A DNA stretch of 64,000 nt from Candidatus Dojkabacteria bacterium (GCA_025999215.1 AP024679.1:779916-843915); one strand, 5' to 3'. Shown: positions 43,484-61,572, counted from the stretch's first letter. A program made the numbers and translations. Notes: a model not told the origin generated them from the letters alone.

Positions 43484-44677
43484 TTACTCAATAATTTGAG
43501 TAATCATACCTGCTCCTACGGTAATTCCACCTTCTCTAACAGCAAATGTCATTTGCTCTTCTAGAGCAGCTGGAACCATAAGTTCAACAGTTACCTCTAC
43601 ATTATCGCCTGGCATTACCATTTGGACAGATTCATCTAAGATAATTGTACCAGTGATGTCAGCTGTTCTGATGAAGAACTGTGGTTTGTATCCAGACTGG
43701 AAACCACTCTTTCTACCACCCTCATCTTGCGACAACACATACAATTGTGCTTTGAATTTTGTATGAGGCTTAATACTTCCTTTAGCCGCCAAAACCTGTC
43801 CTCTTCTGATCTCGTCTCTTTTAATTCCTCTTAATAACAATCCAACATTATCTCCAGCTTGACCTTGATCAAGAGATTTTTTAAACATCTCTACTCCTGT
43901 AACAGTAACTTGTTTAATTTCTTTATCAAGACCAACTTGATCCAATACATCATTTACTTTTACGACACCTCTCTCAATTCTTCCAGTAGCTACAGTACCT
44001 CTACCTTCAATAGAAAACACATCTTCTACTGGCATCAAGAATGGTTTATCTAATTCTCTTTGCGGTTCTGGTATTGTTTCATCTAATGCTTTTAACAATT
44101 CTGCAATTGTTTCATCACCATCTTTAATACCTTCAACTCCATACTTTGCGCTTCCAACAACAAAAGGAACTTTTTCAGCATCATATCCATATTTTTTTAG
44201 AGTATCTTTCACATCTTCTTTAATCAACTCTAACATTTCTGGATCTAAATCATCTTGAAATCTATTAATGAAAACTACAATGTGCTTAACACCTACCTGC
44301 TTTGCAAGTAAGATGTGTTCTCTGGTTTGTGGCATAGGACCATCTTGAGATGATACAACCAAAATTGCACCATCCATTTGTGCAGCACCAGTAATCATGT
44401 TTTTAATGTAGTCTTTGTGACCTGGACAGTCAATGTGAGCATAGTGCCTATTTTCTGACTCATATTCTACATGAGCAGAGGAAACAGTAACGATTTTGTC
44501 TGACCCTGCTCTAGCAATACCTCCTTTAGCAATATCAGAATATGATTTTCCTGAATTTTGCCAACCTTTTCTTTGAGAATAAGCAACTAATGCTGCTGTT
44601 AATGTAGTTTTACCATGGTCAATGTGTCCGAGTGTACCTACATTAACATGTGGTTTTGTTCTTGAGAATTCTGCCAT
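43484..44677 (-). CDS. tuf: Elongation factor Tu
   Basis: [20 protein letters not shown] motifs. Confidence 0.95.
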
Positions 44678-44981
44678 AATATTTCTTAATAATAATTAAA
44701 CTAAAATATTTAATAACTGAAGTGAAAAATTATAGCACCTCAGATTAAAGCTTCATAGTATTTTGTGATTACTTTAAACTTCAAACAATTATTACAGCCT
44801 TTTTATCAAAAATCAAGTAACTGCGAACAATTCTTAACACTTTCAAAAGCAATCCCTTAGAGGATAGCATTATTTTTTTTTCTTTTCAATATTTTTTACC
44901 AAAAATTTTTTCAAACTTTTAATTTACATCAAAAGGTTAAATCAGATAAATAATTTTCTCTATCTAATCTTAAAACCAATT

Positions 44982-46184
44982 TCAAACAAATGTATAAACA
45001 CCATCCTCAAATATAACTTTTTTATCCCCGTCTTTGAAATATGCCGTAATTTTTCTATCCTTGGTTGATATTATATCAGTGTGAATAACTGAATCATTGT
45101 AGCCAAGTTCCTCCCATTCTTCGTCGGAAGTTTTAGTTTTATCTCCACTGTAACAGTCATGATAACTCATTCCTAATGCGATATGCGTGTTTCCATAGTC
45201 TCCTCCAAAATTTTCATCATAAAGGGTTTCTGCCATGAACCTATCAATTCTTGAAAATCTTTTGTCTGTCATAGAAAACTCACCAACCTTGTCAGCATTT
45301 TTTTGCTTTATCATTTCTAACAATACTTTTTCATTTTTGGTTGCGCTAGCTTTACTGACTCGCCCATTTTTAAATTCCAATTTAATACCTTCTATTAAAT
45401 TTCCATATCTATAAAGAGGTTGATCAAAGGAAATTGTACCTTCAGTGCCTCGCCAATCAGGTGAAGTAAAAATCTCAAAACTAGGAATGTTTCTACCACT
45501 TCCGCCATTCCAAGCTCGTTTTTCACCCAAAGTAATCCATAAATCAGTACCCTCAGACTCAATGTGCAATTTTGATATTGGCATTTGATTTAGGATATTT
45601 TTGGCTTCTTCAATTTTACTCATTACGCTCTTCCATTCACTTATTGGGTCATCATAATCCAAAAAGCAAGCTTTAATAACCTGATCCCAAGATTCCTTGA
45701 GACTCAACCCTGCTTCTTTTGCTTGACCCTCTGTTGGATAAAGCCCAAGAGTCCATGTAAACTTACCTTCATCTTCTTTTTTATTTATCCAATCTCGGAA
45801 AGGTTTATTGCTTTGTGCTTTTTTCATAATCTTAGCTGGATCAACATCCTCAAGATAATGCGGATCTTCTTCCCCAATAAGTCTGACATAGTGATCAATT
45901 GTGTCTGTTAAGGATTTAGTGAAATCCCTTGGGAAAAAGTTAAGTTGAGATTCATTAGCATCTTGATAAAATAATTTTTCAAAATCTTCATCAGTAAATT
46001 TCATAATTACATGACCATTTGATTTCAAAATTGCTCTATAAATCTCTAATGCAAGTGGCTTTGAAAAGTATGGGACCACCAAATAAACAACATCTCCAGG
46101 CTTAATTCCATTACCGTCGTTTAAAGCAAAATTAATTAAAATTTTTGCATATTTTTCTAAAATATCTTTCTGTGGTGTATACAT
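44982..46184 (-). CDS. M29-family aminopeptidase (AmpS/PepS-like)
   Basis: 400 aa; the N-terminal region resembles thermophilic aminopeptidases. Confidence 0.65.
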   Translation of the reverse strand: MYTPQKDILEKYAKILINFALNDGNGIKPGDVVYLVVPYFSKPLALEIYRAILKSNGHVIMKFTDEDFEKLFYQDANESQLNFFPRDFTKSLTDTIDHYVRLIGEEDPHYLEDVDPAKIMKKAQSNKPFRDWINKKEDEGKFTWTLGLYPTEGQAKEAGLSLKESWDQVIKACFLDYDDPISEWKSVMSKIEEAKNILNQMPISKLHIESEGTDLWITLGEKRAWNGGSGRNIPSFEIFTSPDWRGTEGTISFDQPLYRYGNLIEGIKLEFKNGRVSKASATKNEKVLLEMIKQKNADKVGEFSMTDKRFSRIDRFMAETLYDENFGGDYGNTHIALGMSYHDCYSGDKTKTSDEEWEELGYNDSVIHTDIISTKDRKITAYFKDGDKKVIFEDGVYTFV

Positions 46185-46206
46185 AAAAAAGATTTAAAAA
46201 TTAAAA

Positions 46207-47334
46207 TTATTGTATTGAATTTAGCCAATCAAAAAAGTTTTGACCACTTTCTATGTATTGTTTAGCATTTTCAACACCAATATATCTCCAATGCCATGGT
46301 TCGAACTGATACATACTTTGATTTTGATCTAAAGTTAATACAAAACCATATTTGTAAGCATTGTTGCTTAACCACTTGCCAATTTCAGTTTCTAAAAAAT
46401 TTTGGCTAAAAATATCATTGCCAGTATCAGGGCTATAAAAATCTACGGTTGTGCCTAGTTGATGCTCGCTAAAGCCTGGACGGGCAGAAATTTTATCAGC
46501 TTCATCTTGCCCGTATTTACTAACATTAGACGCATAAGTTTGCACTTGATTGTTAAAAGACCTATAAGCTGACAAAACCGTCAAAGTTTTGCCTGTTTGG
46601 TTTTGTGCATCTAAAATCATTGTACGCAAAGCCTCGCCCGCATCTTTTCTTATTAAAATATCTGGAGTATTTGCATAAAGCAATAAATCAGTGCTTACAT
46701 TTAACAAATCTCCTGGATCATAGTCATCAACTAATTTATGATTTTTATCAACTTGAACCAAAAGATCTGTTGACTCTGCAACCACATATTGAGCATTTTC
46801 CCAATCTTCAATGTAGCTAGCGCCAAAAGGAATAACTCCTTGTACCCTTTTCACCTTAAGCTCAAAACTTTGCTCTGCAAAGGAAGGAATTTCTATATCC
46901 ACATCACCAGGTACATTTTGATAAGCTTCATCAAGTAACTTAAATCTCAAAGTAGATTCTCCAATACCTATGTTATTAAATTCTAAAACATAGTAATAGA
47001 TATTTTCGCGATTCTTTACAAAAAACAACTGTTGTCGATCATTTGGCTCAAGCAATATTGGTTTGTTAGACTTAATTGTAATTGCTGTTTGAGATTCATA
47101 AATTTCTCTGAGAGAATCGTTGAAAGATATCTCTAAAATTCGATCATCCCCTATTTGAAAAGATTTTTCATTTTGCCCTCTTGTTTGGTCTTTCACCCAA
47201 TTCGAAAATTCCTCAAAAGTCATAAGACCCAGAAAATTTGAAATGGTTGCAACAATTGCGACTGACACACCCACAAAGAAAACAATGAAGAAAATAAACC
47301 CAAAAAATTTTCTTAAAAATTTCATTAATTTCAT
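46207..47334 (-). CDS. Membrane-anchored M15B (VanY-like) D-Ala-D-Ala carboxypeptidase
   Basis: SAYRSFNNQ and SEHQLGTTVDF motifs; N-terminal TM. Confidence 0.7.
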   Translation of the reverse strand: MKLMKFLRKFFGFIFFIVFFVGVSVAIVATISNFLGLMTFEEFSNWVKDQTRGQNEKSFQIGDDRILEISFNDSLREIYESQTAITIKSNKPILLEPNDRQQLFFVKNRENIYYYVLEFNNIGIGESTLRFKLLDEAYQNVPGDVDIEIPSFAEQSFELKVKRVQGVIPFGASYIEDWENAQYVVAESTDLLVQVDKNHKLVDDYDPGDLLNVSTDLLLYANTPDILIRKDAGEALRTMILDAQNQTGKTLTVLSAYRSFNNQVQTYASNVSKYGQDEADKISARPGFSEHQLGTTVDFYSPDTGNDIFSQNFLETEIGKWLSNNAYKYGFVLTLDQNQSMYQFEPWHWRYIGVENAKQYIESGQNFFDWLNSIQ

Positions 47335-47354
47335 TTTAACCTTACTTTAATTTA

Positions 47355-48206
47355 CTATAAATCAACAGCCATTTCCAGTGTGAAGTTTCCAATAGCTTTT
47401 CGCTCAAGCTTGTTTAAAAAAACAAATGTTCCAAGCTCATTGGCTAGATCTTTGGCAAACTGCCTTACATAAGTTCCTTTTGAACATGAAAATTCTACAT
47501 CAATAAAATTTACAGGCATTATTTTTTCTAAATTTCTACAATTCTCCTCATTATAGAAATTACCAAAAATCTCTTTTGGTTCATCATATTTCCCATAACT
47601 CAGAACTTTTATATCATAAATTTTCACAGGCCTTTTAGGTAAATTTAATTTTTCACGAAATTTACCATCTAGACTATAAAATAAAACTTCTTTCTTTTCA
47701 CTATCACCAACAATTTCAAAATGTGAGTATGTTCTAGCTAGTTTTCTTAACTTTTTACCGTTTACCTTTACAGAACTAAAAACAGGAACAAATTGATCGT
47801 ATCCACCCGAAAATTTAAGTATCGCTTTTTTTACTTTATCAAAATTAAAATCAAACTTTTTGGCATTTAAGATTTTGCCTTCTACATCTCCAGAATCTGT
47901 ATCTATTCCAAATACTATCCTTGTTTTATAAGTTTTGTCTAATTCCAAAAACTGATTTGATAATGAAGTAGCTTTACCAATCAGCATAATCATCAAACCT
48001 GTAGCAAAAGGATCTAACGCACCGGCGTGACCTACCTTTTTGGTTTGGTATTTTTCTCTAAGTTTATTGACCAGATCATGAGACGTAATATTTACTGGCT
48101 TATTTAAAAGTAAAATTCCGCTTGCTCTACCAAAATCATCAATTTTAACTTCATTTATTTTAAAATTTTTCATACGCAATTCTAACACATTTTTATTTAC
48201 ACTCAT
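47355..48206 (-). CDS. truB: tRNA pseudouridine(55) synthase TruB
   Basis: GHAGALDPFATGLM. Confidence 0.85.
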   Translation of the reverse strand: MSVNKNVLELRMKNFKINEVKIDDFGRASGILLLNKPVNITSHDLVNKLREKYQTKKVGHAGALDPFATGLMIMLIGKATSLSNQFLELDKTYKTRIVFGIDTDSGDVEGKILNAKKFDFNFDKVKKAILKFSGGYDQFVPVFSSVKVNGKKLRKLARTYSHFEIVGDSEKKEVLFYSLDGKFREKLNLPKRPVKIYDIKVLSYGKYDEPKEIFGNFYNEENCRNLEKIMPVNFIDVEFSCSKGTYVRQFAKDLANELGTFVFLNKLERKAIGNFTLEMAVDL

Positions 48207-48246
48207 TTATTAATTTGTTAAAATCCGCGCGTATAAGTTTTAAATT

Positions 48247-48621
48247 ATGGACCCAAAAGCAATTTTGAAATTTAATCAAGAAGAAGAAGCAAAGAAACGC
48301 GCCTTAATGCAAAGCATAGGGATGAGAATTAAGGAAGCTAGAATAGACAAGCGGATTTCACAGCTTCAGTTGGGTGTGAGGCTTGGTGTAACAGATAAGA
48401 CCATCAGCGGATACGAATCAGGAAGAATTGCTCCTCCAATTGACAAGTTGATTAAAATGGCTGAAATTTTTAAAAAACCAATTACTTATTTTTTAGGTGC
48501 TGAAGCTTTTGAAGAGAATATACCTCATAGACTAAAAGCTCTTGAAATGGTTTTAAAAGATATAAAGCAAGAAATTGCAAATTTAAAGAATGTTTATAAA
48601 AATAGCAACAAAAAAAATTAA
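48247..48621 (+). CDS. XRE-family HTH transcriptional regulator
   Basis: ISQLQLGVRLGVTDKTISGYESGR. Confidence 0.65.
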   Translation: MDPKAILKFNQEEEAKKRALMQSIGMRIKEARIDKRISQLQLGVRLGVTDKTISGYESGRIAPPIDKLIKMAEIFKKPITYFLGAEAFEENIPHRLKALEMVLKDIKQEIANLKNVYKNSNKKN

Positions 48622-48676
48622 AAATTGTTGCAATTAAGTTTTATTCTGATATAATTTTAGAGTTTATTGTATAAAA

Positions 48677-49132
48677 ATGAATAACAAAGTTATAGAATTT
48701 GAAACACAAAATGCCAAAAGTGTTCCGCAAGTTCAAATTGGAGATACCGTTGTGGTTCACACAATAATAAGAGATGGCAACAAAACCAGAATTCAAAAGT
48801 TCAAGGGCTTAATAATTGCTATGTCAGGAAAAGGTGTATCAAAAACATTCACTGTAAGAAAAATTAGCTACGGTGTGGGAGTAGAAAAGATATTTCCGCT
48901 TTACTCCACAAATATTGAAAAAATTGAAATTTTGAAACACGCTAAAGTAAGAAGATCTAAACTATACTTTCTTCGAAACCGTGTAGGAAAAAAAGCTATG
49001 AAGCTTAAAAAAGGAGATGTAGTAGAACCACATGAAAATGTAGTTAGTGAGCCATCAAATGAAGAGGTTAAGGAAGTTGAAAATCAAGCAGAAGAAGTTA
49101 CCGAAGAAGCTCAACAAAATACCAACAGCTAA
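48677..49132 (+). CDS. rplS: 50S ribosomal protein L19 with an acidic C-terminal extension
   Basis: FTVRKISYGVGVEKIFPLYS...; acidic tail. Confidence 0.85.
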   Translation: MNNKVIEFETQNAKSVPQVQIGDTVVVHTIIRDGNKTRIQKFKGLIIAMSGKGVSKTFTVRKISYGVGVEKIFPLYSTNIEKIEILKHAKVRRSKLYFLRNRVGKKAMKLKKGDVVEPHENVVSEPSNEEVKEVENQAEEVTEEAQQNTNS

Positions 49133-49289
49133 AAATTAATTTTTCCTAACAATTTAAGTTTACTATTTAGATAAGTATTTCTTTAATCTTTTCAAAGAGA
49201 TTGTTAAAACTTTGTGATTTGTAAATTGAATATTTAGTTTTAAACATTGTGTCGTCAATTTTAAATCAATAAACTAAGAAATTCCAAAA

Positions 49290-49318
49290 TTGTAAAAGTA
49301 CTAAAATATTGGTAACAT
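49290..49318 (+). promoter_or_regulatory. Putative sigma70-like promoter of surface-protein gene A: TTGTAA, a 17-bp spacer, then an extended -10 TGgTAACAT
   Basis: Pattern match about 25 nt upstream of ATG 49343. The same TGGTAACAT also occurs at 51740..51748 in front of rnhB. Confidence 0.3.
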
Positions 49319-49342
49319 ATCGTGAAGTTAAAGTAGTTAATA

Positions 49343-51679
49343 ATGTTTCAAAGAAAGAGTATTTTAAAAATTTGTTTTTTCTTTCTTTTTGTTTTCATTT
49401 TTTTACATCCAGAAAATATTAGTGCAGCCGAGGTTCCCTGCGGTGAACCAGGTAGTGATTGTGGAGGAAGTGGAGGTGGAAGTGGACCTATTTGTGGAAA
49501 TGGAAGCTGTGAAGCTGGAGAAAGTTGTAGTACTTGTTCTCAAGATTGTGGTTCTTGTTGCACACCAAGTTACCCATCAGCGCCTTCTCCATACGCTCCT
49601 AGTAATGGAGCAACAGTAAATTCTTTAACACCAACACTATACTGGAATATGTATGGAACTTTCGGGACTGGATGTCCACAGATTAACGCTTTTAGAGTTT
49701 TTTTATCTTCCAATTGTTCATCATTTTCTGATATTAGTGGAGCATTAAACGAATCTATAAGATCTTTCACTATACCATCAGGTATCCTTCAATGGAATCG
49801 AACTTATTGCTGGTATGTTATAGCAACTAATAATTCATATGGAGCACAGTCTAGTACTTTTAGATTTACAACCCAGCAAGGATCAATGCTTACATCAGAC
49901 ACAGTAACAGGAGATGTTTGCGGTAACGGTATCTCTGGTAGACCTGATCAATCTAATGTTTCTAACCCTGTTACTTTTAATTTTTCTTTTTCTCAAGCTC
50001 CCTCCTCTTCTTTCGTTGAAGCTAGACTCGCTCTTCTACCGGCCTCTGGCCCTTTTGCTGAAAATAGAGATGTTGTTGATTATGCCACCATACAAAACAA
50101 AGTTATTAGTTCTCAATCTTTTGCCGCTCGATATAACTTATCTGATTCTACAGCTCAAATTTTACTTCCTAATGGCCCTTCCTATTCTTGGTCTTCTCCT
50201 TCTTCTTCAGGTTCACTCTCTAATGGCTTTAATAACTCTAGTTTGCTTAATATTAACATTGATTCTTTTGCTACTTCCTCTACTAATTGGAATGCTCAAT
50301 TTAATGTCCGTTTTGAAAACTCTTTTCCTAGCGGTGTTTACAATCTCTATGCTTACGTTCTTTACAATAACGGATCTAATACTCTAACCGCTTATGGTTC
50401 ACCTGGCGTTTACAATTACAAAAAATTATCTACTGTTTGGGTTGTTGATATGGATGCTCCTTCTGCTTCCATCTCTTCTCCTACCGCATATGAAACTAAT
50501 TTATTTGGCGTTAACTGGTCTGCTACTGATACTAATGGCATTCAAAATGTTTTTAGCTACATTTATTCTGATACTAATGGCGCTACCATTAGAGATAGAA
50601 CTAATCCTTCTACTCCTTTTGATATTGTTACTGATGGTAATCCTAAATCTTATCCTGCTGACACCCCTAATGCTGGTATCAATACTCTTAATCTTGGTGA
50701 GCATCTTTACTCTGATCTCACTCCTTCTCTGAATGCTCAATATGTTTTCAGGCTTTATGCTCAGGATAATGCTTGCAATATTTCTGAAACTTCTAGAAGT
50801 GTATCTATCTCTGATCCTTGGGTCTTATCTTATGACAATACCATTTCTGTTAATTCTGGCTTTAATTCTTTATCTATACCTGAAGTTTCTAACTTCACCG
50901 TTCCTTTTACTTCTGATACATCGGGTCCTTTCTTGAATAACTTTGCTACCATTAGCGGCAATTCCAATACTCCTGCTCTAAGAAATTCTAAAATTAATGC
51001 CTACTCTATCAATTATCTTAACTTAGCTACTTCTTTACCTCCTGATTCTTCCTTTTCTTCTTGGTTTAACTATTTACTTAATCTTGTTTCTCTTAACTCT
51101 CCCTCTAGTATTGTTAACTTTAATGTACCTAACAACTCAGTATCTGGTAATCTCTCTCAAATATTTAATGTATCTCCTAACTCCAAATATGTTCTTATTC
51201 AAAGTAACTCTCTTGATTTAAATTTACTTTCTAATTCTGTTTGTGATATTAAAGCTTTAATTTTTTTAAGCGGTAATTTATCTATTCAACCTGACTTAAC
51301 TAAATCTAACCCTAGCAATGGATGTATATTCATAACTGCTGGTAATACGCTAATCGGAAAAGGTTCAGATAAAACTTCTGCTTCTTTGTCTGATTCTAAT
51401 CCTGCTCAATATGACATTGTAGAAGCTGGCATTATTACCAACAACTTAGATATTCCTGTTGATGCTATTGGAGGGGCTACTGCTGAGTACAACAAGTGGG
51501 ATGGTATTTATATTTTTGGTCTTGTTTACTCTTCTAATCTTTCTTTAAATCGCGATCTTAATTCTTTTGCTAACAATTTACAGCCTGCTCATATGTTTAG
51601 GTTTGATCCTTCTTTGCTTATTAATTTCCAAAATGATCTTGCTAAACGCTCTTTCTCTATTAGGGAATTTGTTAAATAA
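49343..51679 (+). CDS. Large secreted Cys-rich/FN3-like S/T/N-rich surface protein (paralog A)
   Basis: Signal peptide; CGNGSCEAGESCSTCSQDCGSCC module; strongly TCT/T-rich codon usage; 778 aa; no TM. Confidence 0.7.
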   Translation: MFQRKSILKICFFFLFVFIFLHPENISAAEVPCGEPGSDCGGSGGGSGPICGNGSCEAGESCSTCSQDCGSCCTPSYPSAPSPYAPSNGATVNSLTPTLYWNMYGTFGTGCPQINAFRVFLSSNCSSFSDISGALNESIRSFTIPSGILQWNRTYCWYVIATNNSYGAQSSTFRFTTQQGSMLTSDTVTGDVCGNGISGRPDQSNVSNPVTFNFSFSQAPSSSFVEARLALLPASGPFAENRDVVDYATIQNKVISSQSFAARYNLSDSTAQILLPNGPSYSWSSPSSSGSLSNGFNNSSLLNINIDSFATSSTNWNAQFNVRFENSFPSGVYNLYAYVLYNNGSNTLTAYGSPGVYNYKKLSTVWVVDMDAPSASISSPTAYETNLFGVNWSATDTNGIQNVFSYIYSDTNGATIRDRTNPSTPFDIVTDGNPKSYPADTPNAGINTLNLGEHLYSDLTPSLNAQYVFRLYAQDNACNISETSRSVSISDPWVLSYDNTISVNSGFNSLSIPEVSNFTVPFTSDTSGPFLNNFATISGNSNTPALRNSKINAYSINYLNLATSLPPDSSFSSWFNYLLNLVSLNSPSSIVNFNVPNNSVSGNLSQIFNVSPNSKYVLIQSNSLDLNLLSNSVCDIKALIFLSGNLSIQPDLTKSNPSNGCIFITAGNTLIGKGSDKTSASLSDSNPAQYDIVEAGIITNNLDIPVDAIGGATAEYNKWDGIYIFGLVYSSNLSLNRDLNSFANNLQPAHMFRFDPSLLINFQNDLAKRSFSIREFVK
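49891..51679. repeat. Copy 1 of an approximately 1.8-kb direct repeat: about 98% identical to copy 2 over the first 1.1 kb and about 90% over the last 0.7 kb
   Basis: Direct visual alignment of 49891.. with 54106.. at a constant offset of 4215. Confidence 0.9.
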
Positions 51680-51753
51680 CTTGAGATCTTGAAGTAAATG
51701 AGATAGAAACTAATTCTACGTAGTGTGAAAGTAAAAATGTGGTAACATTGAAT

Positions 51754-52362
51754 ATGGGTTTACTACCTGATTTTGAAAAGGAAATTTTACTTAATTCTCA
51801 TTATGAAAGAATAGTTGGCATAGATGAAGCCGGACGTGGATGCTGGGCTGGTCCTGTTGCTGTTGGCGCATACATACTAGATTTGAATTCGCAAATTTTT
51901 GATAGAGTTAATGATTCAAAAAAATTATCTACAGCTACAAGAAACGCCTTATTTAAAAATTTAAAACCACAAAATTTTGTAATTAAATTTGGATCTAACA
52001 CAGAGATTGATACCAAAGGAATAACTACAATCATCATTGATAAAATTTATCAAGTAATTCAACAATTTAGGGATGGTAAAACTCTATTTTTGATTGATGG
52101 TAGACATAACTATAATTTTGGAGTAGATTGTTTACAAGTTCTCAAAGGTGATAGCAAGTTTTATTCAATTGCACTAGCTTCAATTGTTGCCAAAGTAAGT
52201 AGAGATAACTTAATGATTGACTTATCAAAAACATACAAAGATTATAATTTTGCTAAACACAAAGGATATGGGACCAAGTCTCACCTTGATGAATTAAAGC
52301 AATTTGGTGCCTGTGCAATTCATAGAAAAAGTTTTAAACCTGTTTTAGAATTTTTAAAATAA
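51754..52362 (+). CDS. rnhB: Ribonuclease HII (ATG 51754 is the likely start; the ORF track starts at GTG 51739)
   Basis: GIDEAGRGCWAGPV. Confidence 0.85.
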   Translation: MGLLPDFEKEILLNSHYERIVGIDEAGRGCWAGPVAVGAYILDLNSQIFDRVNDSKKLSTATRNALFKNLKPQNFVIKFGSNTEIDTKGITTIIIDKIYQVIQQFRDGKTLFLIDGRHNYNFGVDCLQVLKGDSKFYSIALASIVAKVSRDNLMIDLSKTYKDYNFAKHKGYGTKSHLDELKQFGACAIHRKSFKPVLEFLK

Positions 52363-52904
52363 TGAAAAGAAAATTACTAACAATATTTACCTTCATACTT
52401 ATAGTTACATTAGGATCACTTCTTGCTGCACAAGTATTTTTCTATATTTCAGAAAAGAATAGATTTAATCAAGATACATTTTCAAAAGAACTTTGGTTTG
52501 CGCCATACAATGAAAATATAGAAAATATTTACTTTATAGAAACTTTTTATGGAAAAATAATAGAAACCAAAACAACTGAAAACGAAATGAGTATTAGAGT
52601 CAAACTTGCCAAGCCTATTAAAACCCCTGATCCTAACAAACCTCTAGAGTTTACTGATGAAGAACTTACATTTATTTTTCCTGCTAATCCCAAAGATATA
52701 GAGTTAATAGTAGTTGATAACTTGTTCGACTTAAATTATATTTTAAACCCAATACGAAGCGACATAACTAGTTTCATATCAGATTATAGGTTGGTTTTAA
52801 TTGAAACAGAAAGAAGTTTAACTTGTAATTTTACCTGTAAATCCGAGCTGGATTTAGAAAATCTAAAAATTAGAAAAATATTTATTACAAAAGATAGATT
52901 CTAG
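52362..52904 (+). CDS. Hypothetical signal-anchored protein
   Basis: N-terminal TM; ORF only. Confidence 0.4.
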   Translation: MKRKLLTIFTFILIVTLGSLLAAQVFFYISEKNRFNQDTFSKELWFAPYNENIENIYFIETFYGKIIETKTTENEMSIRVKLAKPIKTPDPNKPLEFTDEELTFIFPANPKDIELIVVDNLFDLNYILNPIRSDITSFISDYRLVLIETERSLTCNFTCKSELDLENLKIRKIFITKDRF

Positions 52905-52908
52905 TCTT

Positions 52909-53292
52909 ATGAAAAAAGCATTGGTTTTAATAACTATCATTATACTAATTTTAACTAATATTTGGTTTTATCGTGGGTATGTTAGGTTTAGTGTATCTAG
53001 GTATTCTAATTTATCAAAAGCCTCAATCGAATATGTTTTTACAATTGAAGATTTTACATTTGCTTATTCAGAAAAATTGGAAAAACTAACCATCCAAAAA
53101 ATTAACAAAATAGATATTGATATTAAAAAACAAGATGCAAATTTCCTGCTATTTGATTGGAAAAAAATTGAGACTGATAATGTTTATACTGAATTGATAC
53201 CTCCTAAAACTTGTAAAAAGTTTGTAATTGGTCATGAGATAGATAATTTAAATTTGCAAGGCCAAAAATGGAGTTTATTAAAATGTGTTTAA
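52909..53292 (+). CDS. Hypothetical signal-anchored protein
   Basis: N-terminal TM; ORF only. Confidence 0.4.
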   Translation: MKKALVLITIIILILTNIWFYRGYVRFSVSRYSNLSKASIEYVFTIEDFTFAYSEKLEKLTIQKINKIDIDIKKQDANFLLFDWKKIETDNVYTELIPPKTCKKFVIGHEIDNLNLQGQKWSLLKCV

Positions 53293-53362
53293 AGGATAAT
53301 TTGATTTTCTACAAAAACTTGCTAGCATTAATTGTAAACTACCTAACTTTACATTTAAGTTT

Positions 53363-55895
53363 ATGAAAAAAAAATCTATAAATATTTTTTTCTTGTTTAT
53401 TTTTTTGTTTATATTTTTTGGATTATTTAGTAGTTTACAATTTCCAACAATAAAAATTCCAAACGTTTACGCATATAATGTTGGTATAAAAACCTATTAC
53501 GTTTGTTGTACTCCACGTAATGGATATGCAGCACAGTTTGGAAAAACCTGTTATTATTCCGAGACAACTGGTGAAGAAGTATATTGTGAAAGCGATGATT
53601 ATCAAATAAGTGGATGTGTGCATTATAGACCTGATATTTGTTCCGCTGGCGGTGGCGGTGGAGGCGGTGGTGGGCCTATTTGCGGTGATGGTTGGTGTGA
53701 AGGAACTGAAAACTGCAACAATTGTGTGGCTGATTGTGGACAATGTTGTAATCCAATTGAACCTTTACCTGTCAATTTGATTGGGCCTGCTAACAATAGC
53801 ATTGTGAATTCAACCACAGTAACTTTTTCATGGGATAATTCTCCTAGTTGGAGAGATTGTGGTTGGACACCAAGGTATTTAAGTTTATGGTTATCATCCA
53901 CTTGTCAACCTGGTAGCTATAGCTACATTGCTGCTACACCTGATATACCTGCTGGTTCAAATTTTGGACCTAATTCTTCGAGTTTTACTTATTCAGGATT
54001 ATCTTGGAATACAACTTATTGTTGGTATGTGAGAAGATTAAATGGTGGAAATAAATCTGCTCATACACCAATATGGCAATTCACTGTATCTAATCAGTCT
54101 TTACTTACATCAGACACAGTAACAGGAGATGTTTGCGGTAACGGTATCTCTGGTAGACCTGATCAATCTAATGTTTCTAACCCTGTTACTTTTAATTTTT
54201 CTTTTTCTCAAGCTCCCTCCTCTTCTTTCGTTGAAGCTAGACTCGCTCTTCTACCGGCCTCTGGCCCTTTCGCTGAAAATAGAGATGTTGTTGATTATGC
54301 CACCATTCAAAACAAAGTTATTAGTTCTCAATCTTTTGCCGCTCGTTATAACTTGTCTGATTCTACAGCTCAAGTTTTACTTCCTAATGGCCCTTCCTAT
54401 TCTTGGTCTCCTCCTGCTTCTTCAGGTTCACTCTCTAATGGCTTTAATAACTCTAGTTTGCTTAATATCAACATCGATTCTTTTGCTACTTCCTCTACTA
54501 ATTGGAATGCTCAATTTAATGTTCGTTTTGAAAACTCTTTTCCTAGCGGTGTTTACAATCTCTATGCTTACGTTCTTTACAATAACGGATCTAATACTCT
54601 AACCGCTTATGGTTCACCTGGCGTTTACAATTACAAAAAATTATCTACTGTTTGGGTTGTTGATATGGACGCTCCTTCTGCTTCCATCTCTTCTCCCACT
54701 GCATATGAAACTAATTTATTTGGCGTTAACTGGTCTGCTAGTGATACTAATGGCATTCAAAATGTTTTTAGCTATATTTATTCTGATACTAATGGCGCTA
54801 CTATCAGAGATAGAACTAATCCTTCTACTCCTTTTGATATTGTTACTGATGGTAATCCTAAATCTTATCCTGCTGACACTCCTAATGCTGGTATTACTAC
54901 CAGCAATCTTGGTGAACACTTTTACTCTGATCTTACTCCTTCTCTGGATGCTCAATATGTTTTTAGGCTTTATGCTCAAGATAGTGCTTGCAATATTTCT
55001 GAGACTTCTAGAAGCGTATCTATTTCTGATCCTTGGCTTTTATCTTATGACAATACCATATCTGTTAATTCTGGCTTTAATTCTCTATCTATACCTGAGG
55101 TTTCTAACTTTACCGTTCCTTTTACCTCTGATACATCTGGTCCTTTTTTGAATAACTTTGCTACCATTAGTGGTAATTCCAATACTCCTGCTACTTAGAA
55201 ATTCTAAAATTAATGCTTACTCTACCAACTACCTTAACTTAGCTACTTCCCTACCTCCTGATTCTTCCTTTTCTTCTTGGTTTGATTATTTACTTAATCT
55301 TGTTTCTCTTAATTCTCCCTCAAATATTGTTAACTTTAACGTACCTAATAACTCAGTATCTGGTAATCTTTCTCAAATCTTTAATGTTTCTCCTAATTCT
55401 AAATATATCCTTATTCAAAGTAATTCTAGTGATCTAAATTTACTTCCTAACACTGTTTGTGATATTCAAGCTCTAATCTTTCTAAATGCAAACTTATCTA
55501 TTCAACCTAATTTGATCAAATCTAACCCTAGCAACGGTTGTATATTCATAACTGCTGGTAATACTCTAATCGGTAAAGGTACTGATAAAACTTCTGCTTC
55601 TTTGTCTGACTCTAACCCTGCTCAATATGACATTGTAGAAGCTGGCATTATTACCAACAACCTAGATATTCCTATTGATGTTGTTGGAGGGGCAACTGCT
55701 GAATACAACAAATGGGATGGTATTTATATTTTTGGTGTTGTTTACTCTTCTAATCTCTCTCTAAATCGTGACCTTAATTCTTTTGCTAACAACTTACAGC
55801 CTGCTCACATGTTTAGATTTGACCCTTCTATTCTTATTAATTTTCAACATGATCTTGCTAATCGCTCTTTCTCTGTTAGGGAAATTGTTGAGTAG
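53363..55895 (+). pseudogene. Paralog B of the surface protein, with a distinct N-terminal domain and a poly-Gly linker. It is interrupted by a +1 frameshift and TAG at 55196..55198, then continues in another frame to 55895
   Basis: Track ORFs 53363..55198 and 55158..55895 together align to gene A. There is a 1-nt indel (gctacttag versus gctctaag) at the identity breakpoint. Confidence 0.6.
54106..55895. repeat. Copy 2 of the approximately 1.8-kb direct repeat
   Basis: See copy 1. Confidence 0.9.
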
Positions 55896-55934: not shown

Positions 55935-56384
55935 TTGAAACAAACAGAAATTATTTTTAACAAAGAAAATATTGAGTTTGAGATAAATGATGATACTGAA
56001 ATATTTAGCCGCCTTAAACTATCAGGTACAGAATCCATAAAAGCCAACTTAAGATTTATACACAATAAACCTCACACAAAATCGCGGATAAATATCAAAG
56101 CTGTTCTTTTTGATGAAGCAAGGTTAGATATTGAAGGGATGCTTGTAATAAATTCAAACGCTAACCAAACAGACACTTATTTAAAAATGGATTGTCTGAT
56201 TATGAGTCCAAACGCTTATGCAAGACTTGTGCCAGGCTTGGAAATTAAAGCTTCTGAAGTTAAAGGTGGTCATGGTGCTACTATAGGGTATATAGATCCT
56301 GAAATTCTTAACTATTTACAATCAAGAGGGCTCAATAAGAAAACATGTGAGAATTTAATTGTGGATGCTTTTTTGGAAAAATAA
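55935..56384 (+). CDS. Mini SufD-like protein (SufB/D C-terminal domain only)
   Basis: GHGATIGYIDPEILNYLQSRGLNKKTCENLIVDAF aligns to the sufB C-terminus in this same window; 149 aa. Confidence 0.55.
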   Translation: MKQTEIIFNKENIEFEINDDTEIFSRLKLSGTESIKANLRFIHNKPHTKSRINIKAVLFDEARLDIEGMLVINSNANQTDTYLKMDCLIMSPNAYARLVPGLEIKASEVKGGHGATIGYIDPEILNYLQSRGLNKKTCENLIVDAFLEK

Positions 56385-58715: not shown

Positions 58716-59525
58716 CTATGCTACTAGATAGTTATTATTATTAGGAGATACAAGGATAAGTATATTTGCTTGTGCTTGTGGCGTTCCTTTTTCACCAGCT
58801 TCACCAGTTATTTGCACAAGTACTGGAAAATATCTGATAACTTTTGCAATTATCTGACCATTTACTACAATTTCTCTTCCTAAGACATTTTGTGGATCGG
58901 TTTTTAGTTTTAATTCTATTCCTAAATAATCCTCACCAAAAAAATTTGTAAAACAGTTTACAATAATAATCGCATTAGGATTTTTTTCAAAGACTTTTTT
59001 TACATAATTCATGAACTCATCACTCATTTGTCCTTGTTGAGGGTAACAAAAAACAATGTCCGGATAATCAAAACCATCACCTATTATAGTACCAAAACTG
59101 AAATTTAGTCCATAAAACAGCTCTTCTTCTGGATTATTAAGTTTATTAAATAACTCCTTTGCTTGTTCGATTGCTTTAGTATCAATATCAAAACCTCTAA
59201 CTGTAATTTCGCGATTTTCATTGTTTTTTTGTAATTCCATTACTACGGAGGCTATAATAGCAAGAGGGACACCAAGCCCACACCCAAAATCTACAATTTT
59301 TTTTATCCTTGATACATCAATTTTTAAATCTTGTAGAATATGTAGTAAGCCATACCATAATGCTATGGGGTTTGTTGGAGTATTGTTAATGCTCTCAAAG
59401 AAATAAGGATCAACACTTAGAAGTATTTCTAAAATTTTCATTAATTTTTCTGGTAGACTTGATATTTTAATAATCATAAAAGAAGGTTCTATTGATGAAA
59501 TTCGTGGTTCTAATTCAGGGCTCAT
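58716..59525 (-). CDS. Putative class I SAM-dependent methyltransferase
   Basis: VDFGCGLG motif I, GFDID. Confidence 0.45.
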   Translation of the reverse strand: MSPELEPRISSIEPSFMIIKISSLPEKLMKILEILLSVDPYFFESINNTPTNPIALWYGLLHILQDLKIDVSRIKKIVDFGCGLGVPLAIIASVVMELQKNNENREITVRGFDIDTKAIEQAKELFNKLNNPEEELFYGLNFSFGTIIGDGFDYPDIVFCYPQQGQMSDEFMNYVKKVFEKNPNAIIIVNCFTNFFGEDYLGIELKLKTDPQNVLGREIVVNGQIIAKVIRYFPVLVQITGEAGEKGTPQAQANILILVSPNNNNYLVA

Positions 59526-59553
59526 ATGTACATTATAACAAATTTAATCTAAA

Positions 59554-61572
59554 TTACCAACCTCCTGCGCTACCACCGCCACCTCCTCCACCACTAAACC
59601 CACCAAAAGACGATCCTCCACTCCATCCTCCACCTCGCGAACTGCTAGTTTGTGGGCTAGTGGCTGAAACTGTTTGATTAGTAAAAGAATTTAGCATTGA
59701 AGCAAAAATTATAGGATCGCTAATGCTTCCTGACCCCTCGTACCAACTTGGGGTTTGGTTATATATATCTTTAAATTTTTGAGCCCATTTTTTTTCTATG
59801 CCAAACACAATTGCATAAGATAAATATCTTTCAAAATCTTCAGGCTTTAGATTTTGTAAAGAGTACCTCTCGGCTGTCTCCAAATACATCTTAAACCCTA
59901 AAATTTTCGCAAATACTTCACTACCCTTAGATGTTTTGCTAGGCATATATCTTGAAATTAACAATAGCCCAAATCCAAAGAGTAAACTAGGAAGAGGCAG
60001 ACTAAAAAATATAGGGAAATTAGTAATAAATGATAAAATCAGTGTTCCCAAAAATATAAATCCAACAGATGCAACCAAAATCGCATTTGATATAAAAATA
60101 TATTTTAATCGTGTTTTGTTGGGAGACTCTTTAAAATATCCTCTTTGCTTCATCTCTTCATAAATTTTCTTTACAATAAAATGGTATTTGAGTGGAAATG
60201 TATATCTTATAGAATCCAAATTTACTTCATTATTATTGTTTTGAAATATTGCATTCATAATATCTTGTTCTGCATCACTCAAGTCTGAAATATCATCTTT
60301 AAGCTTAATTAATTTATATTTTTTCGGGCTTGTTTCTTTAATCTTGATATAACCTCTGTAAGCTAAATCGATAATTGAGCCTACAACATCTTTCTTATCC
60401 ACTTTTTCATCTTTAAGCGAACCTAGTAGATATGGAGGCAGATTTTCTGGCGGAACAAACTCAGGAATGATAGTTTTTGGCATATTTTTATCTCTGCCTT
60501 TTTTCCTATACAAATAAATCAACAAAAGAATACCTAATGGTGTAAAAATCAATCCAATACCACACATCAAAATTGAAATATAAAAAACAATTTCAGATAA
60601 AAATGTTCTTTCCATTCTTACCTCTATTTCAAAATTTTCACCGGGTTGCAGATCTAAATTTACCGAATAATCTTCAAATCCATTAGCTTGAAATAACAAT
60701 TTATGTTTACCTGCAGGAATTCCCTCAAGCACTCCATCAAAACCTGAATCCATTTTTATTCCATCCAACAAAACCCTTGCCAAAAGAAGAGGTCCTCTAA
60801 TTGAATAAGTTACACTCGCTGGTCTTACGATTTCATTATTTCTAAATTCATAGGCCACAGTAAAATCTCCAAATTTTCCCAGGTTTTTTTGTAAGTTTAA
60901 TGTTAGTTTATTGGTATTTTTATCAAAACTTTGCTCAAAACTATAATCACTGAAAACCTTGAATCTATTTTGAGAAAATTTTACAGAATCAGGGAATTTT
61001 ATTTGAACAGATGCATTTTGAATATTTCCAGCTCTCTCTTCCGGTATCGCGTTCCAGTAAAAATAAGGAACTAATGTTTCTGTTTTGTTTGATGTAATTC
61101 CTCCTTCTTTCAGCCAATTAAGTGATCCTAGTAACAGGTACCTTATTTTCCAAGTTACAACTGTATCTTTTTGATATTCTTCATCCCAAATCTTCCATTC
61201 AAATCTTAAGTATTCAGTTCCATTACTATCTGTAACTTCATATTTTCTAAACCCATCCTTTATGCCAAGTTCGTTGCCATCTTTGTCATAAACACCCAGT
61301 AGTATAACTTGAGAAAAACCTCCACACACAAGGTTATTTTGTTCACAAAATTGCTTTTTTTGTGGATTATTTAATGTCAAATCCCTTCTAGCACCATTGC
61401 TAACGCCATTAAACCTTTGAGTTATAGTCTCTTCAACTATAACAGCGGAATCGTTTTTTATTTCTATGAAAACATCGTAATTTGGATAATCAATTCGAGG
61501 TGCAGCTTCAGCTGCAGAGGTAAAAAATAACCCTGCAAATAACACCAATAAAAAAATAACTAATTGCCTCAT
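59554..61572 (-). CDS. DUF2207-like membrane protein with a Gly-rich C-terminal tail
   Basis: Signal peptide, extracellular domain, TM cluster, ...SSSRGGGWSGGSSFGGFSGGGGGGGSAGGW. Confidence 0.5.
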   Translation of the reverse strand: MRQLVIFLLVLFAGLFFTSAAEAAPRIDYPNYDVFIEIKNDSAVIVEETITQRFNGVSNGARRDLTLNNPQKKQFCEQNNLVCGGFSQVILLGVYDKDGNELGIKDGFRKYEVTDSNGTEYLRFEWKIWDEEYQKDTVVTWKIRYLLLGSLNWLKEGGITSNKTETLVPYFYWNAIPEERAGNIQNASVQIKFPDSVKFSQNRFKVFSDYSFEQSFDKNTNKLTLNLQKNLGKFGDFTVAYEFRNNEIVRPASVTYSIRGPLLLARVLLDGIKMDSGFDGVLEGIPAGKHKLLFQANGFEDYSVNLDLQPGENFEIEVRMERTFLSEIVFYISILMCGIGLIFTPLGILLLIYLYRKKGRDKNMPKTIIPEFVPPENLPPYLLGSLKDEKVDKKDVVGSIIDLAYRGYIKIKETSPKKYKLIKLKDDISDLSDAEQDIMNAIFQNNNNEVNLDSIRYTFPLKYHFIVKKIYEEMKQRGYFKESPNKTRLKYIFISNAILVASVGFIFLGTLILSFITNFPIFFSLPLPSLLFGFGLLLISRYMPSKTSKGSEVFAKILGFKMYLETAERYSLQNLKPEDFERYLSYAIVFGIEKKWAQKFKDIYNQTPSWYEGSGSISDPIIFASMLNSFTNQTVSATSPQTSSSRGGGWSGGSSFGGFSGGGGGGGSAGGW

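Follow-up and report, generated by a model that had tools for sequence, protein, structure and literature searches.

A 64,000-nucleotide (nt) stretch of the genome of a Candidatus Dojkabacteria bacterium (GCA_025999215.1, AP024679.1:779916-843915; hereafter the window) carries two tandem genes on the same strand, copy A and copy B, which encode paralogous secreted proteins. An earlier note on this DNA had described the pair as a mosaic in which a frameshift in copy B falls exactly where the near-identity of the two copies breaks off. We find that this coincidence does not exist. The account that we favour, at a probability of about 60%, is that copy B is the ancestral gene and copy A an extra one, that gene conversion between the two was overlaid by an exchange with a second lineage from the same hot spring, and that copy B recently acquired its frameshift. 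That there are two paralogs was borne out: copy A is an intact open reading frame (ORF) whose 778-amino-acid (aa) product is 100% identical to BCX14290.1/GIW58787.1 (KatS3mg085_822), and copy B is a 611-aa ORF up to a TAG, followed by a +1 frame up to 55895.

The two copies align without gaps from 49889/54104 to 51673/55889, except for one extra base in B at 55193, and copy A and the window's copy B are 93.3% identical across this 1785-nt tract. Its 5' edge is abrupt, with identity rising from ~50% to 100% within a few nt at 49889/54104; the N-terminal parts upstream are homologous yet diverged, as the earlier note had said, at ~50% nt and 34–38% aa identity. Within the tract, mismatches numbered 0 out of 167 at copy A positions 49889–50055 (0%), 17 out of 609 at 50056–50664 (2.8%), 29 out of 313 at 50665–50977 (9.3%) and 73 out of 696 at 50978–51673 (10.5%), tiers that replace the ~98% identity over ~1.1 kb reported before. 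A two-rate likelihood scan placed the identity change-point at 50665 in A and 54880 in B (2-log-likelihood-unit (lnL) support, 50641–50682), ~313 nt upstream of the indel, which thus sits inside the diverged part. Forcing the change-point to the indel was 12 lnL units worse, and mismatch density did not differ between the 5' and 3' sides of the indel (Fisher p = 0.57). Run as mismatch counts and a change-point scan, the per-site identity check therefore upheld a stepped identity and not a step at the indel. The densest cluster of A/B mismatches, 10 in 26 nt, lies right after the change-point (50680..50705 / 54895..54920), where the peptides read ...NTLNLGEHLY in A and ...TTSNLGEHFY in B.

What the steps correspond to became apparent from a sister genome. 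The window belongs to the circular metagenome-assembled genome (MAG) KatS3mg085 (862,240-bp contig, 10.8x coverage), obtained from Katase hot-spring sediment at 52 °C by PacBio high-fidelity (HiFi) sequencing (read N50 10.5 kb) and assembly with metaFlye 2.8.3 (PMC9671151). The same metagenome yielded KatS3mg086, a low-quality bin of the same GTDB order, J137, comprising 226 kb in 6 contigs at 5.9x. One KatS3mg086 contig (L007) has the layout of the window, in the order rplS, A, rnhB, small1, small2, B, SufBD and EF-G. Comparison with a related genome, as the earlier note had advised, thus showed that the sister MAG holds both copies, with copy B intact at 843 aa (GIW58783.1). The 3' 1785 nt of this copy B are 100% identical to copy A 49889–51673. 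Identity to A stops 6 nt before the stop codon, where the sister copy has the B-type GAG TAG and not AAA TAA, and past its tract it carries B-type downstream sequence. In the tract, A and B of KatS3mg086 are therefore 100% identical over 1785 nt, versus 93.3% between the B copies of KatS3mg086 and KatS3mg085. This match is a bounded conversion tract and not a collapsed repeat. A collapsed repeat assembly, half of the artefact that the earlier note had allowed for, is ruled out because, in two HiFi assemblies with a read N50 of 10.5 kb, each copy is bordered by unique sequence.

The likeness of the two lineages extends far beyond the tract. Across 45673–54270, the window and the KatS3mg086 contig differ at 2 out of 8598 positions, and the flanks of this block are ~88–92% identical on each side. 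Rightward of the block the two contigs first differ at 54271, inside the A/B tract, and because the sister copy B equals A there, all A/B mismatches in the tract of the window are also mismatches between the two MAGs. Synonymous divergence (dS) between A and B in tier 3, the most diverged part of the tract (Table 1), is 0.36–0.40, and that of flanking orthologs between the MAGs is 0.13–0.68 (EF-Tu, 0.21; S10, 0.38; L2, 0.46; L3, 0.64; SufBD, 0.68). The ~10% divergence also runs smoothly from the end of copy B into the downstream flank. The step from 98% to 90%, once read as a conversion tract ending at the indel, coincides instead with the end of identity with KatS3mg086 (54271 onward), and the resemblance of tier 3 dS to that of flanking orthologs is in line with exchange between the lineages or with a strain-chimeric assembly.

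The other part of the earlier claim, recombination or gene conversion between the paralogs, gained support. The N-terminal modules of A and B, at 34–38% aa identity, are not each other's nearest relatives: each is closer to modules of other lineages, that of copy A to L003 (49%) and P0012 (48%) and that of copy B to L003 (41%). By contrast, the 588 residues after the N-modules are 94–100% identical between A and B, versus 59% to the nearest ortholog (L003). Tract boundaries are abrupt, relationships are discordant among segments, and in KatS3mg086 A and B are closer to each other than the B copies of the two lineages are, although this does not hold for tier 3 of KatS3mg085. Such a mosaic of N-module and C-terminal part speaks for a scaffold under concerted evolution or for a swapped module, and does not match a simple, recent duplication of the entire gene.

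Gene order indicates which copy came first. Four other loci (L003, L005, L008 and L009) each carry a single member of the family, preceded by two small ORFs whose products have an N-terminal hydrophobic helix. The order rplS, rnhB, small, small, large, SufBD, EF-G is common to L003 and L008; in L005 and L009 the surroundings of the cassette are unrelated. Because the single-copy orthologs in the synteny of L003 and L008 hold the position of copy B, copy B is the ancestral, cassette-embedded gene, and copy A is an addition specific to this lineage, placed between rplS and rnhB.

In the history that we propose, the 3' 1.8 kb of A and B would have been homogenised by gene conversion, leaving the perfect, sharply bounded tract of KatS3mg086, and the two lineages, co-resident in one hot spring, would recently have exchanged an ~8.6-kb block ending inside copy B. 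On this view the window's copy B would be chimeric: its 5' third would be that of KatS3mg086, and hence that of copy A where the two overlap, its middle would be of intermediate divergence, and its 3' kilobase would differ as much as the lineages ordinarily do. In an unrelated and very recent event, the insertion of 1 nt, 313 nt into the diverged part, would have truncated this copy before the beta-solenoid. The simplest account requires at least two events, conversion between A and B and exchange between KatS3mg085 and KatS3mg086 of a block ending in copy B; the 2.8% tier would record a third, older event, either conversion within KatS3mg085 or an earlier inter-lineage exchange. Stepped identity (0%, 2.8%, ~10%) would on this account be largely a product of inter-lineage exchange, on top of paralog gene conversion.

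Could A/B gene conversion inside KatS3mg085 have produced all three tiers without any inter-lineage exchange? Such conversion clearly occurs, as the perfect tract in KatS3mg086 attests, and the 2.8% tier (dS 0.074) could be an older conversion within KatS3mg085. However, the identity of the window to KatS3mg086 ends at 54271, inside the tract, and tier 3 continues smoothly into an equally diverged (~10%) flank and has a dS that matches ortholog dS. In addition, the N-module of copy B, which could not have been converted from A, is identical between the lineages, so an inter-lineage event is needed in any case, and we consider conversion by itself quite unlikely. The lineages might instead have met only in the computer: metaFlye may have threaded the KatS3mg085 contig, the KatS3mg086 contig or both through the other lineage, which implies a mosaic copy B present in neither real genome. 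The origin of both MAGs in one low-coverage metaFlye assembly speaks for such a strain chimera, as do an identical 8.6-kb block in two contigs, its abrupt return to ~10% divergence and the patchwork at 43850–45672. Yet the A-identical tract meets KatS3mg086-specific flank within 6 nt, a junction that real reads must carry; ~10-kb reads would presumably not overlap across 10% divergence, so that a near-identical stretch of several kb would be needed in both genomes; and the 2 mismatches within the block indicate that the contigs were polished separately. A chimera of strains is thus unlikely, although it might account for the exact ends of the shared block. Because real molecules must carry the junction of the A-type tract with the KatS3mg086 flank, the near-identity of the lineages at this locus is very likely biological, and the shared block appears to be a true biological exchange.

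Several points nevertheless weigh against the history proposed here. Coverage is only 10.8x for KatS3mg085 and 5.9x for KatS3mg086, the latter a low-quality 226-kb bin, and both MAGs come from a single metaFlye assembly. As metaFlye can merge or cross-connect related strains, the common assembly means that the identical block, its ends or the insertion could be consensus artefacts. There are just two distinct tract sequences, which would fit transfer in either direction and either origin of the 2.8% tier. Finally, the surface or adhesin role of these proteins is putative, suggested by their signal peptide and fold.

The frameshift itself needs separate consideration. Where copy A reads GCT CTA AGA, copy B reads GCT ACT TAG, confirming that a 1-nt indel (the extra base at 55193) creates a TAG at 55196–55198. 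The lesion corresponds to codon 546 of copy A and stops copy B after 611 codons, which removes the beta-solenoid and keeps the signal peptide, the Cys-rich segment and three FN3-like domains. Removing base 55193 restores the 843-aa ORF, with no further stop or indel. The orthologs all read through the site, and the C-terminal region downstream is conserved. Omega, the ratio of nonsynonymous to synonymous divergence, is 0.12 after the lesion versus 0.084 just before it (p = 0.48); as a point estimate, at most ~4% of the divergence time was unconstrained. KatS3mg086 cannot arbitrate the frameshift because its copy B tract is of A type. A scan of public metagenome contigs for a third strain, using the 18-mer adjacent to the indel, returned 25 matches, and all 25 were chance matches without wider similarity.

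The insertion might be a consensus error of the ~11x HiFi/metaFlye assembly, in which case copy B would be intact at 843 aa and both paralogs functional. Such an error would be in keeping with the low coverage (10.8x), with a lesion that stands alone, with an omega as low past it as before it and with the intact copy B of the sister assembly. That sister copy is uninformative here, however, its tract being of A type. Moreover, the insertion lies outside a homopolymer (GCT[A]CTT), and homopolymers are the usual context of HiFi errors; it is also the only net frame-breaking indel across the ~18.2 kb of aligned coding sequence of the two assemblies. We therefore hold a consensus error to be unlikely and the frameshift to be probably real, making copy B a fresh pseudogene or truncation.

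Translation could in principle bypass the lesion, by programmed +1 ribosomal frameshifting to full-length B or by production of two functional polypeptides, and the open downstream frame under purifying selection is in line with this. The site (GCT ACT TAG A) is, however, no prfB-like CUU-UGA slippery motif and has no Shine-Dalgarno-like stimulator upstream, no ortholog is split there, and a C-terminal fragment translated by itself would have no signal peptide. Bypass in either form is hardly credible, and a +1 frameshift of the prfB type was rejected, given the site ACT TAG A, the missing stimulator and orthologs that are all unshifted. Recoding of TAG was also ruled out: TAG is the natural stop of copy B too, and the downstream frame is shifted anyway.

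Table 1. Features of the two-copy locus and its neighbours, in window coordinates.
Feature	Coordinates	Strand	Basis or remark
Block near-identical to KatS3mg086: M29 peptidase gene, VanY, TruB, HTH (helix-turn-helix), rplS, copy A, rnhB, small1, small2 and 5' third of copy B	45673..54270		
Copy A, intact ORF, 778 aa	49343..51679	+	
Copy-A-specific N-terminal module (signal peptide, Cys-rich segment, FN3-1)	49343..49888	+	
Shared tract, copy A, 1785 nt	49889..51673	+	Alignment
rnhB (RNase HII)	51739..52362	+	Pfam RNase_HII PF01351, E=8.6e-33
small1, 180 aa, N-terminal hydrophobic helix	52362..52904	+	Cassette gene 1
small2, 127 aa, N-terminal hydrophobic helix	52909..53292	+	Cassette gene 2
Copy B 5' ORF, 611 aa, ends in premature TAG	53363..55198	+	BCX14294.1, KatS3mg085_826
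Copy-B-specific N-terminal module, same sequence in sister MAG	53363..54103	+	
Copy B tract tier 1, 0 mismatches versus copy A	54104..54270	+	
Copy B tract tier 2, 2.8% mismatch versus copy A	54271..54879	+	dS 0.074, omega 0.09
Copy B tract tier 3, 9-10.5% mismatch versus copy A	54880..55889	+	dS 0.36-0.40, omega 0.08-0.12
1-nt insertion (placed at 55193), adjacent substitution and in-frame TAG 55196-55198	55193..55198	+	
Copy B remainder in the +1 frame, encodes beta-solenoid	55197..55895	+	ORF from TTG 55158, 245 aa
SufBD-core protein, 149 aa, conserved neighbour 3' of copy B	55935..56384	+	Pfam

Truncation of one member of a tandem pair of secreted-protein paralogs that share a converted tract also invites a reading as programmed antigenic or adhesin variation, in which A would be the site of expression and B would serve as a silent donor cassette, or in which the frameshift would be a phase-variable switch. 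The earlier note had proposed both the silent cassette and the route to variation, and neither stood up. Copy B begins with an ATG and a signal peptide of its own, sits in the ancestral slot of the operon and is unbroken in KatS3mg086. It is the single possible 'cassette' in the window, where no third copy was found. What conversion makes uniform is the conserved part, and the variable N-modules outside the tract stay untouched, the reverse of cassette-based variation. The sequence of the frameshift site, GCTACTTAG, holds no simple-sequence repeat, and no inverted repeats were found flanking the locus. We consider programmed variation very improbable. As specific candidates, a silent-cassette system was rejected because copy B has the start codon and signal peptide that a silent cassette would lack and because the 588 converted residues are the conserved and not the variable segment, and a phase-variable contingency locus because the frameshift shows neither a homopolymer nor a short tandem repeat. 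A diversity-generating retroelement was also discarded. Such an element leaves mismatches confined to adenines where its variable repeat departs from a short template repeat; here the repeat is 1.8 kb long and the mismatches are dominated by transitions (87, against 32 transversions) without adenine bias, 22 of the 119 falling at A in copy A and 20 of the 119 at A in copy B.

Comparison with known systems points the same way. Cassette systems such as Neisseria pilE/pilS, Borrelia vlsE and Anaplasma msp2 keep arrays of promoterless, truncated silent copies from which a variable exposed segment is replaced. The present locus resembles them in having tandem paralogous surface-protein sequences that exchange segments by conversion; unlike them, it has one partner and not an array, that partner is a complete gene in its ancestral slot, and conversion covers the conserved and not the variable region. 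Parallels are also found in the concerted evolution of tandem paralogs, for which the duplicated tuf genes of enterobacteria and outer-surface protein paralogs are examples. Here, too, a tract of near-identity is sharply bounded and the remainder far more diverged, and the paralogs of KatS3mg086 are 100% alike, versus ~90–98% for copy B and its KatS3mg085 ortholog; the locus differs in that only part of the gene is homogenised and that an inter-lineage exchange ending in the tract is overlaid. Mosaic genomes formed by recombination of co-resident lineages offer a further likeness, namely an 8.6-kb block with 2 differences and patchy edges amid 10–30% divergence, although the present case is known from two low-coverage contigs of one metagenome assembly.

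The proteins themselves belong to an unannotated family. The term 'giant', used of them before, is an overstatement for 778–843 aa. Copy A consists of a signal peptide, a Cys-rich linker (~30–72), three FN3/Ig-like beta-sandwiches at ~80–180, ~183–342 and ~358–488, an extended beta region (~490–570) and a helix followed by a beta-solenoid (~574–778). AlphaFold2 gave the C-terminal part a predicted local distance difference test score (pLDDT) of 60 with 5 sequences, and a 50-sequence alignment was used instead, for which mean pLDDT was 88.5 and the predicted template modelling score (pTM) 0.67. The model predicts a helix at the N terminus that corresponds to the signal peptide, disorder in the Cys-rich stretch 23–69, and a helix at 574–585, after which short, regular strands succeed one another as far as residue 753. 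Foldseek matched the predicted sandwiches to FN3 triplets (E~1e-7), a PDB profile search with the family profile matched Dscam FN3 (E=1.8e-6), and 9 of 50 relatives showed weak Pfam fn3 matches. Pfam and NCBIfam searches of A, B and the small proteins found no family above threshold, so that 'FN3-like' holds at the level of fold and profile, with a beta-sandwich fold, whereas Pfam does not detect FN3 (PF00041) in A or B. The signal peptide and three tandem predicted sandwiches recall multi-FN3/Ig-like bacterial adhesins; unlike in these, no recognised wall-anchor or sorting motif was found in the proteins.

For the C-terminal part, the model suggests a beta-solenoid with a flanking alpha-helix, as in DUF3494 (PF11999) and the IBP-1-fold proteins ColAFP (3wp9), AnpIBP (7bwx), FfIBP (5uyt) and SfIBP_1 (6bg8). 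In contrast to these, there is no sequence-level match, neither in Pfam (50 members) nor in NCBIfam nor in the PDB profile search, and the habitat is at 52 °C. Ice binding is implausible because the organism lives at that temperature. A word-index search found only three homologs, a search of genome contigs with copy A gave two irrelevant weak Bacteroidota matches (L001 and L002) and nothing else, and tblastn against phage records gave no match. In an exhaustive profile search, 2177 representatives passed E<=0.001 and 168 passed E<=1e-30; the full-length architecture of ~800 aa recurs in many. The family thus seems to comprise widespread secreted proteins of ~800 aa with a predicted DUF3494-like beta-solenoid at the C terminus; the literature searched contained no description of it, nor of DUF3494-like domains in surface proteins of Patescibacteria. 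In giant proteins of 1300–5200 aa elsewhere in public data (P0077, P0078, P0080, P0100, P0142 and others), the first FN3-like module of the family (profile positions ~44–155) is repeated up to ~34 times.

Bacteria of the candidate phyla radiation (CPR), or Patescibacteria, are thought to live on host cells, and to our knowledge their surface proteins are almost entirely uncharacterised. A tentative reading, to which we give rather low odds, is that the locus serves an episymbiotic CPR bacterium as a modular system for attaching to its host, in which conversion keeps a conserved FN3-FN3-beta-solenoid scaffold uniform beneath interchangeable N-terminal Cys-rich/FN3 specificity modules, and that it is at the same time a hotspot at which two co-resident Dojkabacteria species, elsewhere 10–30% diverged, have very recently exchanged DNA. 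If so, genomes would directly document that surface-protein genes of Patescibacteria still recombine between species. In mechanism nothing here is new: this is ordinary gene-family evolution by known processes in an understudied phylum. Its value lies in offering a small, clean example of duplication, N-module divergence, scaffold homogenisation, exchange between lineages and rapid loss of one copy. The locus also brings to light an unannotated family of at least 168 cluster representatives at E<=1e-30; with a confidently predicted architecture and a conserved cassette of three genes, this family would reasonably merit experiments. A caution follows as well: an apparent conversion mosaic in one MAG can reflect strain-level recombination or assembly and not intragenomic events.

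As the earlier note had stated, rnhB and two small proteins lie between the copies, the former recognised by Pfam and the latter each with an N-terminal hydrophobic helix. In every locus the two small ORFs come before the large gene, in most cases overlapping it, and this holds in unrelated contexts too (window, 52362..53292; L003, 8773..9608; L005, 8604..9454; L008, 7121..8004; L009, 7043..8016). Their products are related across loci for small2 (window versus L005_141, E=5e-5; L003_129 versus L005_141, E=5e-7) and marginally for small1 (window versus L005_142, E=0.004), and small1, small2 and the large gene look like a conserved three-gene module. In L003 (9590..12076), the JGI call for the ortholog P0003 (691 aa) is N-terminally truncated; the true ORF, 828 aa long and overlapping small2 at its end, begins with a signal peptide and Cys-rich sequence. 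Downstream of copy B, the 149-aa ORF at 55935..56384 matches the SufBD core domain in its C-terminal half alone (profile positions 109–232). As it directly follows the large gene in L003 and L008 as well, this neighbour marks the ancestral position of copy B. A promoter and terminator scan of the locus gave signals at background level.

Along the contig, divergence between the two MAGs is very uneven, with stretches of ~70%, ~90% (the EF-G and ribosomal flanks) and ~100% identity. The left edge of the shared block (43850..45672, in the EF-Tu and M29 peptidase genes) is a patchwork of 250-nt windows that are either 100% or 91–96% identical to KatS3mg086, and 31 mismatches between the window and KatS3mg086 cluster at 45459–45672. 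Past EF-G, nt identity falls to ~70%, as in a 269-aa ORF and a 672-aa DUF2207-like ORF at 58716..61572 on the minus strand. Within the L22 gene (rplV), the segment 39998..40060 carries six small indels relative to KatS3mg086 whose net frame change is zero, which suggests that this segment is rapidly evolving.

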